Below, in pieces: positions 281 to 8,311 of a stretch of DNA of 8,311 nt. Origin of the DNA: PVC group bacterium (GTDB lineage Bacteria; GCA-001730085; JADFSZ01). The translations under genes were made by a program, and so were the position numbers. The notes below the pieces were generated by a model. It had not been told where the DNA came from, made no database searches, and worked only from the letters and a program-made list of their open reading frames with translations. The stretch's first letter is position 1, and every line of letters begins with the position of its first letter. Location: positions 1 through 8,311 of the forward strand of contig JADFSZ010000075.1 of assembly GCA_022560555.1 (NCBI GenBank), read 5' to 3'.

Positions 281-1195
281 ATGAACATTATGAATAGTGC
301 TGACAAAGATTTGCAAGAAAACCCCCCGGAGGAAAAAAGCAAACTCGGGGTTATTGTCCATTCATTTTTTATCATTCCGTTTCTCATCGCGGTTTTTTGT
401 GTTTTAATCTTTGCGGGTGTGCGCATCCTTACCAAAGAGCCGCATACTGTCTATGATTATATTGAGGACATAAAGGTCGGCTCCCTCAGCAAAAGGTGGC
501 AGGCGGCGTTTGAATTGTCCAAAATCCTTGTAAACAAAGAGAAAGTTCCGCGCGAGGAAGCGTTTGTAAGAGAAATGATCGCGGCGTTTGAACATGCCAA
601 GCATGATGATGCGCGCATCAGACAGTATCTGGGACTTGCTATGGGGCGCTCGGAAATCAAAGCATTTGTACGTCCGATTGAAGACAGCCTTTCTACGGAA
701 TCCGAAGAGAATCTTCCCTCCCTTATTTATGCTCTCGGCCTGTTGAAATCACGGGACACAGCAACAAGCATTCATGATTTCATAAATCATCCTGATACTC
801 GAATACGGCTTTTATCCGTTATGGCGCTCGGAAATATTCAAAATCCTGAAAGCGTGCCTTTCCTTCAAAAAGCTTTGAATGACACAGAAGTCAATGTCCG
901 GTGGGACGCTGCGATTGCTCTGGCCAAATTCGGGGATGATTCAGGCTATTCGGTGCTAAGAAATCTCCTAGATAGAGATTATTTAGCTCAATTTCCGGAG
1001 GTTGATTCCTATGAAGCCAATGAAGCCATAGTTGTGGCCATTGAAGCATCGATCTTGCTCAATCATCCGCAATTAAACGAAACGATTTACCAATTGAGTG
1101 AAAATGATGAAAATATTCGTGTTCGCCGGGTGGCCCTGAAAGCTGTCAAAATGTCAACGGATAAAGCTTCAACCCAAACGCAAAATTCACTATAA
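281..1195 (+). CDS. Membrane-anchored HEAT-repeat (PBS-lyase HEAT-like) protein, 304 aa
   Basis: There is one N-terminal hydrophobic helix (about res 23-47, GVIVHSFFIIPFLIAVFCVLIFAGV). It is followed by repeated HEAT_2/PBS-lyase-like units, for example IRLLSVMALGNIQNPESVPFLQKALND, VNVRWDAAIALAKFGDDSGYSVLRNLL and IRVRRVALKAV. The start could also be the ATG at 290. The stop lies 6 nt before the Rieske gene. Confidence 0.85.
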   Translation: MNIMNSADKDLQENPPEEKSKLGVIVHSFFIIPFLIAVFCVLIFAGVRILTKEPHTVYDYIEDIKVGSLSKRWQAAFELSKILVNKEKVPREEAFVREMIAAFEHAKHDDARIRQYLGLAMGRSEIKAFVRPIEDSLSTESEENLPSLIYALGLLKSRDTATSIHDFINHPDTRIRLLSVMALGNIQNPESVPFLQKALNDTEVNVRWDAAIALAKFGDDSGYSVLRNLLDRDYLAQFPEVDSYEANEAIVVAIEASILLNHPQLNETIYQLSENDENIRVRRVALKAVKMSTDKASTQTQNSL

Positions 1196-1201
1196 TAAAG
1201 T

Positions 1202-1813
1202 ATGACTATGACCGAAGACGCAATAAATCAAAATCCAAATGAAAATCCGGAAAGTCAAAATAAACCGGAAGTGTCTCCACCGGCATCTCCTGTGGGTGAG
1301 AAAACACCCCCCATAGAAGCCAAGGAGAAGGTCAGTCGTCGATCTTTTCTAACCTCAGCGACTCTGGCATGGGGCGCTTTTGCCGTGGCCACCGCGGGAA
1401 TTTTAACCGGTGCCGGGAGATTCTTTTTCCCCAATGTTCTCTTTGAGCCGCCGCAAACTTTTAAGGCCGGGTATCCCGATGAATATACAATCGGAGAAGT
1501 TTCAGAACGATGGAAAGAAAAATTTGGTGTATGGATTGTTCGTGAAAAGGGAATGATCTACGCTCTTTCAACCGTATGTACCCATCTGGGATGTACGCCC
1601 AACTGGCTTGGCAATGAGAAGAAATTTAAATGCCCTTGTCATGGAAGCGGATTCCGGTCGACAGGGATCAATTTTGAAGGTCCGGCACCTCGGCCCTTGG
1701 AACGCTACCGGATTGTTCTGGCTGATGACGGCCAAATTTTTGTGGATAAAACCAAGAAATATCAACATGAAAAGGGACAATGGAGCGATTCTGAGTCCTT
1801 TATTGCTGTTTAA
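1202..1813 (+). CDS. petC: Rieske [2Fe-2S] iron-sulfur subunit of a cytochrome bc/b6f-type complex (PetC/QcrA equivalent), 203 aa
   Basis: Cluster box I is CTHLGC (res 126-131) and box II is CPCHGS (res 144-149), with the 12-residue spacing typical of b6f/Bacillus-type Rieske proteins. A twin-arginine motif SRRSFL (RR at nt 1337-1342) is followed by the hydrophobic anchor TSATLAWGAFAVATAGILTGAG. Confidence 0.95.
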   Translation: MTMTEDAINQNPNENPESQNKPEVSPPASPVGEKTPPIEAKEKVSRRSFLTSATLAWGAFAVATAGILTGAGRFFFPNVLFEPPQTFKAGYPDEYTIGEVSERWKEKFGVWIVREKGMIYALSTVCTHLGCTPNWLGNEKKFKCPCHGSGFRSTGINFEGPAPRPLERYRIVLADDGQIFVDKTKKYQHEKGQWSDSESFIAV

Positions 1814-1824: not shown

Positions 1825-2616
1825 ATGGCTGATCCGAAGAAAAAAACGATGTTTCAAAAAATAGCTGAATCCCAATTCCTAAAGTCCATTTTTCGTACGG
1901 GGATCCCGCACACGCGTCGCCAACGCATGATGGCGGTTCTTAATAATGTGTTTCTCCATCTCCACCCGGTTCGCTTACCCAAACATGCCGTCAAAGTGAA
2001 ATACACATGGTGTATGGGGGGCTTGTCCTTTTTTGTTTTTTTGGTTTTGACGGTTACGGGGATTCTTCTCATGTTTTACTACCGTCCTACCGTCGAATAT
2101 GCTTATGGAGACATTATAGATCTTGCCGAGCAAGTGCCCCTGGGAATTATGAGAGAAATTCATCGGTGGGGTGCCCATCTCATGATCATTACTGTTTGGC
2201 TTCATATGTTTCGGGTTTTTATGACAGGATCCTATAAACCGCCGCGGGAATTTAACTGGGTTATAGGGGTTCTCCTTTTGGTACTGACGATGCTTCTGAG
2301 TTTTACAGGGTATCTTTTGCCATGGGACCAGCTCGCTATTTGGGCGATCACAGTCGGATCTAATATGGCAAGAGCAACCCCTTTTCTTGGACACGAGGGG
2401 CCCGGCGCGGCTCTTCTGGCCATAGGGGATATCAATCTTGTTCATGCCGCTAGTGATGTGAGGTTTGCGCTTTTAGGCGGCCGATTTGTCGGTGAAGCCA
2501 CATTACTCAGGTTTTATGTGCTGCATTGTATTGGATTCCCGTTCATTATAATGATCTTTATGGTCGTGCATTTTTGGCGTATCCGAAAAGACGGAGGCAT
2601 ATCCGGGCCAACGTAA
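1825..2616 (+). CDS. petB: Cytochrome b6-like subunit (N-terminal four-helix half of split cytochrome b; PetB/QcrB equivalent), 263 aa
   Basis: It can be aligned by eye with cytochrome b6: WCMGG..TG..MFYYRPT, REIHRWGAHLMIITVWLHMFRVF, PREFNW, TGYLLPWDQ, ATLLRFYVLH..P and a C-terminal RKDGGISGPT. The helix B His pair is H113/H127 (13 residues between). The helix D His pair is H234/H249 (14 between, which is b6-type spacing). Confidence 0.95.
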   Translation: MADPKKKTMFQKIAESQFLKSIFRTGIPHTRRQRMMAVLNNVFLHLHPVRLPKHAVKVKYTWCMGGLSFFVFLVLTVTGILLMFYYRPTVEYAYGDIIDLAEQVPLGIMREIHRWGAHLMIITVWLHMFRVFMTGSYKPPREFNWVIGVLLLVLTMLLSFTGYLLPWDQLAIWAITVGSNMARATPFLGHEGPGAALLAIGDINLVHAASDVRFALLGGRFVGEATLLRFYVLHCIGFPFIIMIFMVVHFWRIRKDGGISGPT

Positions 2617-6722: not shown

Positions 6723-7505
6723 ATGATTTTGAATATCATCAGCATCATTTTTATTCTCTTCGCTATTTGTTATCCGCTAGGATATGTTTTTCATTTTGGC
6801 GTACCGATAAAACAAAGTTTTGATCGCTTCAATTATGCTTTAATCTCCATCGTTGCGTCTCTGGGAGTTCTGGCGTGCTTTGCCTTAAATATCCCTCGTA
6901 ATTCTCTGATCACTCTTATTGCTTGGGTCATCCTGCTTCTTTGTTTCACCTGGTTTTTGTGGGACCGGGATAAGTATAAGGAGATTGTGCTGATTTTGAT
7001 GTCCATGATAGGGATGCTTGTGTTTGGATTTGTCTCCAAAGACATTTTCCCTACGGCATCCATAAATCTCATATCCATGGCCGTGTGTATTCTCGGAGGT
7101 TGGGTTATTTCCTTGGCCATTTACGCGATGAATCTGGGGCATTGGTATCTGAATGTCAAAAAACTTGATCTTAAACATCTCATAAGAACCGTTTACGGAT
7201 TTACGGGACTTGTTATTTTGAGATTGATTTGGGATGGTGTGATGTTTCTCACTAAAAGCTTTACTTATAGAGGTGAAATGATCAGTTTAGGAAAATATCT
7301 TTTTACTCTTGATGGGGTATTCCTTTGGATCGCCCTTCTTTTCGGATCCGTAGTTCCACTTATTCTTACATTCATGACTCTGGAGACGCTTCGAGTCAAA
7401 TCAACACAATCGGCCACCGGGATCCTCTATGTTATTGTCGTGTCTTTGATGATAGGGGAGCTTACGTACAAATACTACCTCGTCCAATTTGGATGGGTTC
7501 TGTAA
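6723..7505 (+). CDS. Polytopic integral membrane protein (about 8 TM), unknown family, 260 aa
   Basis: The ORF is strongly hydrophobic, with about 8 helices by eye (2-23, 37-56, 61-80, 88-104, 112-137, 156-176, 193-218, 232-255). It is on the same strand 33 nt after the cytochrome c stop, and the next gene starts 2 nt after its own stop. I recognise no family motif. Confidence 0.8.
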   Translation: MILNIISIIFILFAICYPLGYVFHFGVPIKQSFDRFNYALISIVASLGVLACFALNIPRNSLITLIAWVILLLCFTWFLWDRDKYKEIVLILMSMIGMLVFGFVSKDIFPTASINLISMAVCILGGWVISLAIYAMNLGHWYLNVKKLDLKHLIRTVYGFTGLVILRLIWDGVMFLTKSFTYRGEMISLGKYLFTLDGVFLWIALLFGSVVPLILTFMTLETLRVKSTQSATGILYVIVVSLMIGELTYKYYLVQFGWVL

Positions 7506-7507
7506 CG

Positions 7508-7960
7508 ATGAAAACGGTAATCCTTGATTGTTTAGAATGTGATCAATCAACCACTAACGCTGTTGAGGATCAAAATGAAATACTCTGCTCCGGATGTCAA
7601 AAAAAATGGCTTTTTTATTCAGAAGGGTATCAATTTGAAACGTGCCCCATCTGTGAATGTAAAGAGTTTTACCGGCAAAAAGATTTTGATAAACGTATCG
7701 GATGTCTCATTATGTTTGTCGCGATTGTTCTTGTGCCATGGACATACGGGCTTTCGCTCCCGTTCTTTTTTGCGATTGATTGGTTTTTATATCGAAGGGT
7801 CCCCGATATGGCGGTGTGCTATCTGTGCCGGGGTGAGTTTAGAGGATTTGACCTTCAAAAAAAAATCAAAACCTTCAACCATATTATGGCAGAAGGCTTT
7901 GAAAAAAAACGTTTAACGCAAAAGAAATGGTTTTCAAGCCCTCAGGACACCCCCGAATGA
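7508..7960 (+). CDS. Small membrane protein with four CxxC pairs (double zinc-ribbon or rubredoxin-like, split by a hydrophobic hairpin), 150 aa
   Basis: I prefer the start at ATG 7508, 2 nt after the preceding TAA (7503-7505). The tracked start at 7325 overlaps the membrane-protein gene in another frame. The Cys pairs are C8xxC11, C27xxC30, C46xxC49 (CPIC) and C104xxC107. A hydrophobic segment (res ~64-95) lies between the third and fourth pairs, and the C-terminus is basic. Confidence 0.75.
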   Translation: MKTVILDCLECDQSTTNAVEDQNEILCSGCQKKWLFYSEGYQFETCPICECKEFYRQKDFDKRIGCLIMFVAIVLVPWTYGLSLPFFFAIDWFLYRRVPDMAVCYLCRGEFRGFDLQKKIKTFNHIMAEGFEKKRLTQKKWFSSPQDTPE

Positions 7961-8004
7961 AAATCATCCAAGTCTAATAGTATCAGTATATTAAAAATCT
8001 CATC

Positions 8005-8033
8005 TTGACACAAAATCCCAAATAAGCTACTCT
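8005..8033 (+). promoter_or_regulatory. Candidate sigma70-type promoter for the downstream secreted-protein gene
   Basis: A consensus -35 TTGACA (8005-8010) is separated by a 17-nt spacer from TACTCT (8028-8033, TAnnnT). It lies in the 189-nt gap after the operon. This is a sequence match only. Confidence 0.35.
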
Positions 8034-8138
8034 ATCGAAAATTTTCAATCTCTGTAAGGGTTTGAATTCGAATAAGTAAAGCCCAATATCGTTCCTTAAA
8101 ACAGAGAGCAGAATGCCCTTAATATCATCCCAAAACCC

Positions 8139-8144
8139 GGAGGA
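8139..8144 (+). promoter_or_regulatory. Shine-Dalgarno site
   Basis: GGAGGA lies 5 nt upstream of ATG 8150. Confidence 0.7.
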
Positions 8145-8149
8145 CATTT

Positions 8150-8311
8150 ATGAAACACATTCAAACAATCCTTTTACCTATCATGGCGATCTTTTTGACG
8201 ACAACGTGTGTCGATGCCGCTTCTATCACGGGGAAGGTCGTTTACGAGGGGGCCGTTCCTAACTTAAAACCCATCAGCATGGACGCGGATCCTATATGTG
8301 CCGCAAAGCAT
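8150..8311 (+). CDS. 5' end of a secreted protein (signal peptide plus start of a beta-sandwich-like domain), partial and running off the window
   Basis: It has a strong SD and ATG and stays open to the window end (54 codons): MKHIQTILLPIMAIFLTTTCVDAASITGKVVYEGAVPNLKPISMDADPICAAKH. A Sec-type signal (basic n-region, hydrophobic core, VDA-A cleavage-like site) is present. It is missing from the ORF track because it is truncated. From memory, the G-K-V-x-Y/F-E-G-x-x-P...MDADP-x-C motif matches the N-termini of secreted proteins often annotated as carboxypeptidase-regulatory-like or cupredoxin (plastocyanin/azurin family). Confidence 0.65.
   Translation, partial: MKHIQTILLPIMAIFLTTTCVDAASITGKVVYEGAVPNLKPISMDADPICAAKH

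Follow-up and report, generated by a model that had tools for sequence, protein, structure and literature searches.

CxxC150, a protein of 150 amino acids encoded on the forward strand at positions 7508 to 7960 of a contig from a PVC group bacterium (JADFSZ010000075.1), carries four CxxC cysteine pairs around an internal hydrophobic stretch and follows directly on the gene of a membrane protein of 260 amino acids, here called mem260. The window, which is the whole stretch of DNA analyzed, is the complete contig of 8311 bases (C44) within a metagenome-assembled genome of 1.66 Mb in 222 contigs. With somewhat better than even confidence, we propose for CxxC150 the role of a mem260 partner with a hairpin anchor and a zinc staple, and for both proteins together that of an accessory or assembly module at the n-side (the cytoplasmic side) of one clade of cytochrome bc complexes, namely a clade with a CxGG motif in its cytochrome b. 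The conservation of the pair, its predicted fold, the coupling of the two genes, their synteny and their co-occurrence in genomes are established here and form the basis of this proposal.

From these data we infer the identity of the metal, the topology, the contacts with mem260 and with the complex as well as the activity as follows. CxxC150 would be anchored in the cytoplasmic leaflet by a short helical hairpin. A metal at a Cys4 site, most likely zinc in a structural role, would staple the two ends of this hairpin together in a manner similar to LITAF. A second, dispensable zinc ribbon would be located at the N-terminus. The protein would work as an obligate partner of mem260, whose invariant His, Thr/Gly and Tyr residues would face the cytoplasm as well. 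The pair would be dedicated to the clade that combines a CxGG cytochrome b with a HEAT protein, a subunit IV of 371 amino acids and a multihaem cytochrome c of roughly 1000 amino acids, and would act at the n-side of this complex, either as a pair of accessory subunits or as an assembly and maturation factor.

The features of the pair, all on the forward strand, are the following:

6723..7505, +, mem260, membrane protein of 260 amino acids with eight helices and a predicted NrfD/PsrC/ActC/CydAB-like fold (AlphaFold2, predicted local distance difference test (pLDDT) of 95.4)
7508..7960, +, CxxC150, 150 amino acids, double Cys4 protein with a putative internal membrane hairpin (open reading frame)
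7514..7615, +, N-terminal module resembling a zinc ribbon, residues 3-36 with C8, C11, C27 and C30 (predicted strands 3-7, 14-18, 23-26 and 33-36)
7643..7654, +, first knuckle of the putative split ribbon, C46-P-I-C49 (conservation in 177 sequences)
7691..7798, +, predicted helical hairpin, residues 62-97, with the conserved tip VPWTYGLSLP and the near-invariant D91 (AlphaFold2 helices 62-79 and 83-97)
7817..7828, +, second knuckle of the putative split ribbon, C104-Y-L-C107, with a near-invariant Y105 (conservation)
7880..7936, +, predicted basic C-terminal helix, residues 125-143 (AlphaFold2)

The start codon ATG of CxxC150 lies 2 nt past the TAA stop codon of mem260 (7503-7505), and scans for promoters and terminators gave no signal over background. 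An initial annotation of this DNA had proposed translational coupling to a b6-type complex. The gene is indeed tightly coupled, although its direct partner is the mem260 gene and not a cytochrome gene. The cysteine positions given there are correct: C8/C11, C27/C30, C46/C49 and C104/C107; two extra cysteines are found at C51 and C66. Between the last two pairs lies a hydrophobic stretch of about 31 residues (65-95) with the sequence WTYG at its center. Neither in Pfam nor in NCBIfam did the protein match a family.

A word-indexed search revealed 28 close homologues, and an exhaustive HMMER search of 1.84 billion proteins returned 364 cluster representatives at E<=1e-3, 108 of them at E<=1e-10. 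Few relatives have a source name and these are all called "hypothetical protein". For a survey of loci, taking one genome per species, a query alignment of 13 sequences yielded 177 relatives, from which 80 loci were fetched. Among the related genomes sampled, only two others belong to the source phylum. In the alignment of 81 full-length members (A4) all eight cysteines are invariant, in line with the conservation expected by the initial annotation. Since the homologues are numerous and the eight cysteines are invariant in these members, the cysteine pattern, as judged from the sequences, is not due to chance. Throughout the 177 sequences, the four core cysteines are present in 167 (C46), 169 (C49), 168 (C104) and 169 (C107) cases, and all four are kept in 157 of the 165 sequences that cover the core; the sequences lacking one of them are mostly fragments. 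About 70% of the family members have the N-terminal pair of knuckles (C8/C11 and C27/C30) and about 19% lack it, and ten Bdellovibrionota genomes encode short forms of the latter kind. Because roughly one member in five does without the N-terminal knuckles, the sequences indicate that the split Cys4 site together with the hairpin is the universal core and that the N-terminal ribbon is accessory. Further near-invariant positions are K58-D59-F60, G65, T79, L84, D91 within the second hairpin helix, Y105 and R112. One protein of 477 amino acids (P0143) was considered as a fusion of mem260 and CxxC150 and was rejected, as it looks like a frame-shifted gene call; the other long forms of the family contain no informative domains.

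An AlphaFold2 model of CxxC150 calculated on alignment A4 has a mean pLDDT of 93.4 and a predicted template modeling score (pTM) of 0.82. Here, the knuckles C8/C11 and C27/C30 sit between the strands 3-7/14-18 and 23-26/33-36 in the manner of a classical zinc ribbon. They are followed by a strand (54-58), the helices 62-79 and 83-97, two strands (100-104 and 110-112) and the helix 125-143, so that C46/C49 and C104/C107 flank the strands 54-58 and 100-112. The pairing into two sites, which had been postulated on the condition that the hydrophobic stretch folds back, is thus backed by the model, since the predicted hairpin returns the chain and places C46/C49 next to C104/C107. As its helices of 18 and 15 residues are short for two full membrane crossings, the hairpin is probably a re-entrant, monotopic membrane anchor. 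Basic residues are present on both flanks of the hairpin (R56, K58, K62 and R63 on one side, R96 and R97 on the other) and in the C-terminal helix, and no signal peptide was found in CxxC150. Based on these flanks (positive-inside rule) and the missing signal peptide, both Cys4 domains are predicted to be cytoplasmic, which is the placement the initial annotation had given.

In 72 of the 80 loci, the gene of the second protein, mem260, immediately precedes that of CxxC150. In 64 loci the gap between both genes ranges from -4 to +30 nt, typically as an ATGA overlap. On sequence level, mem260 has no match in Pfam, NCBIfam or among the PDB sequences. Its predicted structure, however, aligns with PsrC, ActC, ActF, CydA and CydB over 213-252 residues with VIA-align Z-scores of 14.3-17.0, while the next unrelated row of this comparison has a Z-score of 9.8; the nearest named cluster of the ESM-Atlas is DmsC (score 0.84). 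It therefore resembles the NrfD/PsrC/DmsC/ActC-ActF and CydA/CydB proteins in its double four-helix-bundle of about 240-250 residues. In contrast to NrfD-type proteins, it lacks a sequence-family match as well as an iron-sulfur or molybdopterin partner, and its conserved residues are predicted on the cytoplasmic side. The residues G139, H140, T232 and Y236 are invariant, and G233, W80, R167 and Y251 are near-invariant; G139-H140 belong to the motif LGHWYL and the region of T232-Y236 to the motif STQSATGILY. With about 10 positive charges in the loops of one side compared to 5 on the other, the termini of mem260 are predicted to face outward, and H140 at the end of helix 5, T232-Y236 at the start of helix 8 and W80 would be located at the cytoplasmic face. 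The conserved residues of mem260 would accordingly be found on the same side as the ribbons of CxxC150. Genome G056 encodes mem260 without a detectable CxxC partner, and in G052 both genes are present in an unlinked arrangement.

The initial annotation had left open whether the Cys4 sites bind structural zinc or redox-active iron. All sequence and structure matches obtained are to zinc ribbons and are weak. A profile search of the PDB sequences found RpoP/Rpo12, as well as S27e ribbons, for residues 5-37 with a best E-value of 0.002. Foldseek against the PDB gave no global match, only the local ribbons of eS27, Rpb12, ZitP and TMEM55B. In a Pfam scan, many zinc-ribbon families matched 7-27 of the 81 members, all under their gathering scores. 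The knuckles of CxxC150 lack the CxxCG or CPxCG signature of rubredoxins; their second cysteine is trailed by D12, Q31, E50 and R108, and across the family no glycine is conserved after the second cysteine of any knuckle. Since the rubredoxin glycine is missing and every weak match points to a zinc ribbon, structural zinc is most likely the metal bound by the Cys4 sites.

Alternatively, one or both sites might bind iron like a rubredoxin and serve as an electron relay, which would connect a cytoplasmic partner with a site for quinone or haem in mem260 or at the n-side of the bc complex. Two Cys4 sites on the n-side would fit to this, as would the fold of mem260, which it has in common with the quinone-reactive NrfD/PsrC/ActC subunits. 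Such subunits normally work together with an iron-sulfur subunit, and in Marinimicrobia the pair adjoins a 4Fe-4S ferredoxin and the iron-sulfur carrier Mrp/NUBPL. Nevertheless, rubredoxin was found neither for the window protein at E<=1 nor among the 25 families most matched by the 81 members. Together with the missing glycine and the loss of the N-terminal site in about 19% of the family, this speaks against the rubredoxin-like part of the initial annotation. Furthermore, the quinone sites of NrfD-type proteins are on the p side, as known from the structures of PsrC and alternative complex III. We therefore regard a redox role of this kind as rather improbable; CxxC150 is probably a component of the complex with an accessory or assembly function that was not described before.

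A structural role of zinc at a membrane anchor has a known counterpart. LITAF was shown experimentally to be monotopic and to bind zinc, and it has a hydrophobic segment of 22 residues between cysteine-rich zinc-finger motifs (PMC5095921). This segment dips into one leaflet, the termini are cytosolic and one zinc staples the flanks (PMC5095921, PMC5142333). The LITAF family (PF10601, with human LITAF and CDIP1) and CxxC150 are alike in the plan of two CxxC motifs separated by a hydrophobic segment, and among the named clusters of the ESM-Atlas, "LITAF-like zinc ribbon" comes closest to CxxC150 with a score of 0.81, which serves just as a lead. In contrast to LITAF, the hydrophobic stretch of CxxC150 comprises about 31 residues in two predicted helices. 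Also the N-terminal ribbon, the C-terminal helix, the bacterial origin, the obligate partner with eight helices and the respiratory context are seen only for CxxC150. PF10601 did not match the window protein at E<=1 and had 0 matches in the 121 Bdellovibrionota genomes, of which 45 encode the CxxC150 family; the control genomes had none either, so that this count has no positive control. By analogy, CxxC150 thus shares the logic of LITAF, although it is not a demonstrable member of the LITAF family.

Other small Cys4 proteins resemble only parts of CxxC150. The zinc ribbons of Rpo12/RpoP/Rpb12, eS27 and ZitP are similar to residues 3-37, having two CxxC knuckles on beta-hairpins. These proteins, however, are soluble binders of nucleic acids or of other proteins, and the matches of CxxC150 to them are under the curated thresholds. 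RubA of photosystem II, to which the initial annotation had referred, is likewise a small Cys4 protein on the n-side of a bioenergetic membrane. RubA, however, is built of a genuine rubredoxin domain and a single transmembrane helix at its C-terminus. CxxC150 differs from it in having two sites, one of which is divided by the internal hairpin, and in lacking the signature of rubredoxins.

The genes upstream of the pair encode a bc complex, and the cluster continues downstream up to the end of the contig:

281..1195, +, membrane-anchored HEAT-repeat protein with repeats of the phycobilisome (PBS) lyase type, first gene of the operon (Pfam, NCBIfam)
1202..1813, +, Rieske 2Fe-2S protein
1825..2616, +, cytochrome b of the short b6-type, carrying CxGG (TWCMGG), the motif for haem cn (motif meaning, PMC5600118)
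2619..3734, +, extended subunit IV, 371 amino acids
3753..6689, +, multihaem cytochrome c, 978 amino acids, with an N-terminal region resembling a coiled coil
8150..8311, +, secreted cupredoxin-like protein, start only due to the contig end (complete with 232 amino acids on contig C138)

The order of the operon is HEAT protein, Rieske protein, cytochrome b, subunit IV, multihaem cytochrome c, mem260 and CxxC150. This full order is present in about 50 of the 80 loci, in records whose labels cover six phyla or more, among them Omnitrophota, Planctomycetes, Hydrogenedentota, Verrucomicrobia and Calditrichaceae, and also in the sole relative of the same phylum that carries the CxxC150 family. The synteny with bc genes that was called for by the initial annotation is hence found. 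In many loci the cluster runs on into genes for a cupredoxin-like protein, COX1, COX3, COX2, CtaA and CtaB, and genes of the ATP synthase lie upstream.

In view of the latter arrangement, the pair could instead be part of the neighboring haem-copper oxidase set, or it could bring the bc complex and the oxidase together in a supercomplex. Many loci have the pair exactly between the bc genes and the series from the cupredoxin-like gene to CtaB, and in L017 the pair is located with the oxidase genes, 4.5 kb away from the bc genes. However, several loci have extracytoplasmic function (ECF) sigma and anti-sigma genes as an insertion that cuts CxxC150 off from the oxidase genes, so that the pair stays on the side of the bc genes; L027, L032, L042 and L055 contain the bc genes and the pair without a downstream oxidase. 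Also, two loci of a sister clade, which is described below, have the cupredoxin-like gene beside the bc genes and lack the pair. Because these insertions and the oxidase-free loci separate the pair from the oxidase set, the pair segregates with the bc genes, and an affiliation with the oxidase appears quite improbable. The cupredoxin-like gene adjoins the bc genes in the sister operons and in genomes without the pair, and its product is therefore a likely electron acceptor of the complex, as far as gene content tells.

Outside this operon the picture is different. The pair stands alone amid housekeeping genes in records labeled Marinimicrobia/Fidelibacterota, Thermoanaerobaculia, Bacteriovoracaceae, Auribacterota and Chlamydiae. 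In L023, L040 and 14 more Marinimicrobia/Fidelibacterota loci, the pair is part of a conserved series that includes, in order, 4Fe-4S ferredoxin, Mrp/NUBPL, mem260, CxxC150, UppS, BamA, OmpH, LpxD and LpxC. A link to iron-sulfur assembly, as these neighbors might suggest, was rejected, since other lineages lack them except for Mrp genes near the pair in three loci (L008, L082 and L084).

Such heterogeneous unlinked neighbors (UppS/BamA/Lpx genes, LptFG, two-component systems, CorC) would fit to a general housekeeping role of the pair in the membrane, which is not respiratory and in which the linkage to the bc genes is accidental. The synteny in about 50 loci speaks against this, as does the distribution over whole genomes, where the pair co-occurs almost perfectly with one cytochrome b clade in two phyla, although the genes are mostly far apart. 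A housekeeping role is for this reason the least probable of the explanations considered, and we give it hardly any weight.

For these counts, a cytochrome b was assigned to the clade if it is at least 66% identical to that of the window. Within 151 genomes of Acidobacteriota, 37 encode both CxxC150 and the clade cytochrome b, one (G157) only CxxC150 and none only the cytochrome b; in other words, all 37 genomes with the clade cytochrome b are within the 38 that have a strong CxxC150 match (36/36 if G088, which is an unpublished genome, is left out). Similar numbers were obtained for 121 genomes of Bdellovibrionota, where 44 encode both, one (G280) only CxxC150 and three only the cytochrome b (44/47); here, both genes are mostly hundreds of kilobases apart. 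The 101 genomes of the Marinimicrobia-type phylum contain both in seven cases, CxxC150 alone in two (G061 and G062) and the cytochrome b alone in at least seven (7/14). In a diverse sample of 61 genomes, the three with the clade cytochrome b all carry the CxxC150 family (3/3).

Several of these observations weigh against a module dedicated to the bc clade. At least 10 genomes have the complex without CxxC150 (three Bdellovibrionota and at least seven of the Marinimicrobia-type), and four have CxxC150 without the clade cytochrome b (G157, G280, G061 and G062); moreover, the co-occurrence counts carry no correction for shared ancestry, hence no P value is attached to them. In five of the Marinimicrobia-type genomes with only the cytochrome b, neither mem260 nor CxxC150 was found at E<=0.01. 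To this the neighborhood outside the operon has to be added, which consists of housekeeping genes such as ferredoxin-Mrp/NUBPL, UppS-BamA, LptFG and others. The association of mem260 and CxxC150 with the cytochrome b clade is thus strong and not obligatory, and the pair is dispensable in some lineages. Since complex-bearing genomes without the pair exist, it is not an indispensable core subunit. The suggestion of the initial annotation that the protein is an assembly factor or an n-side partner is plausible.

The clade itself is defined by its haem ligand motif. Every complete cytochrome b of the clade that was examined (about 50) contains TWCMGG, and the CxGG motif of cytochrome b binds haem cn/ci (PMC5600118). 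A sister clade with 54-61% identity was found in 18 Acidobacteriota genomes (L103, L104, L107-L123). Here, the sequence is TWG[ML]GG, i.e., a glycine replaces the cysteine for haem cn, and CxxC150 is encoded in none of these 18 genomes. Two sister loci were examined (L103 and L104), in which Rieske protein, cytochrome b, subunit IV and cytochrome c are encoded beside the cupredoxin-like gene, without the HEAT gene and without the pair; they keep the extended subunit IV and the multihaem cytochrome c of roughly 1000 amino acids. The sister clade represents a natural Cys-to-Gly comparison set for the loss of haem cn.

This raises the alternative that the pair, possibly together with the PBS-lyase-like HEAT protein, is the machinery that inserts haem cn and binds it covalently in b6-type cytochromes b outside cyanobacteria. 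In detail, mem260 with its invariant n-side His would, together with CxxC150 and perhaps the HEAT protein, deliver or ligate the haem that has its thioether bond to the cysteine of the CxGG motif, and the pair would be a non-homologous counterpart of the CCB system of chloroplasts and cyanobacteria. According to Dibrova et al., only cyanobacteria and plastids possess the CCB system, and the system for the insertion of haem cn elsewhere "remains a mystery" (PMC5600118); a literature search revealed no later claim for such an insertion system, and this vacancy speaks for the alternative. It is further in line with the invariant TWCMGG in the cytochromes b of the pair-carrying clade, with the distribution in Acidobacteriota (37 Cys-type genomes with the pair, 18 Gly-type genomes without) and with G061, in which the clade is missing but the pair is present, and in which a different cytochrome b has a cysteine at the motif position. 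Also, mem260 and CxxC150 are both predicted to carry their conserved positions on the n-side, the side on which haem cn is bound.

However, a CxGG cytochrome b is present without CxxC150 in G005, G008, G054, G047, G045, G050 and G056 (the last one keeps mem260), and in at least 7 Marinimicrobia-type genomes the operon of this clade is likewise present without CxxC150. Conversely, G062 has the pair, and its sole detected cytochrome b lacks the cysteine. The correlation with Cys or Gly may be plain co-inheritance inside one clade, and the Cys4 sites look structural rather than catalytic. As several CxGG cytochromes b occur without the pair, a universal haem cn system was rejected, and also the narrower role in this clade is unlikely, even if we take it more seriously than the other alternatives. 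The comparison with CCB1-4 (System IV), the factors for haem ci/cn, gives the same mixed picture: like these factors, the pair would have a CxGG cytochrome b6 as its target and would reach it from the n-side. The presence of the pair correlates partly with the cysteine of CxGG, whereas many CxGG lineages are without it, and the two systems have no sequence family in common, given that neither mem260 nor CxxC150 has a Pfam match.

Few energy-converting enzymes have been studied as thoroughly as the cytochrome bc/b6f complexes. To our knowledge, the bc complexes of Omnitrophota, Planctomycetes, Acidobacteriota, Bdellovibrionota and Marinimicrobia have never been purified. The initial annotation stated that no bc/b6f subunit of this kind is described, and our literature search found no description either. 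Here, a two-gene module without a family name was defined, which tracks one CxGG (haem cn-type) clade over at least eight phylum-level groups, including genomes that carry the genes at distant chromosomal sites. If both proteins are subunits, an n-side zinc-stapled element and a membrane protein of the NrfD fold in a bc complex would be unprecedented. If they are assembly factors, the pair would provide candidates for the insertion of haem cn outside cyanobacteria.

Some further observations concern the neighbors of the pair. The repeats of the HEAT protein match the phycobilisome-lyase type (CpcE/NblB-like). Lyases of the CpcE type make thioether bonds from a tetrapyrrole vinyl group to a cysteine. 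The HEAT gene accompanies the CxGG cytochrome b clade even in genomes that lost the pair. In the cytochrome c of 978 amino acids, an N-terminal helix is followed by about 200 residues matching SMC-like coiled-coil models (54-212), before the CxxCH domains start; such a coiled-coil stalk is unusual for a cytochrome of a bc complex.

A second contig of the same bin, C138 (L002 1-650), overlaps the window at 7661-8311 with 94.6% identity, and its copy of CxxC150 is 91% identical to that of the window. The two contigs appear to reflect heterogeneous strains or a duplicate that collapsed upon assembly. On C138 the cupredoxin-like gene is followed by COX1, and the protein starting at 8150-8311 displays a copper-like motif C-x2-H-x2-M and a CarboxypepD_reg domain (L002 489-1187 and 1247-1792). 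Several loci labeled Omnitrophota (e.g., L022 10537-13353) harbor an ECF sigma factor and a zf-HC2 anti-sigma factor with VWA and YfbK_C domains between the bc genes with the pair and the oxidase genes. In Marinimicrobia genomes (L098 6521-11274 of G062), another Rieske/cytochrome b complex is encoded, with an unsplit cytochrome b of 355 amino acids without the CxGG cysteine, and it is flanked by three multihaem cytochromes c.

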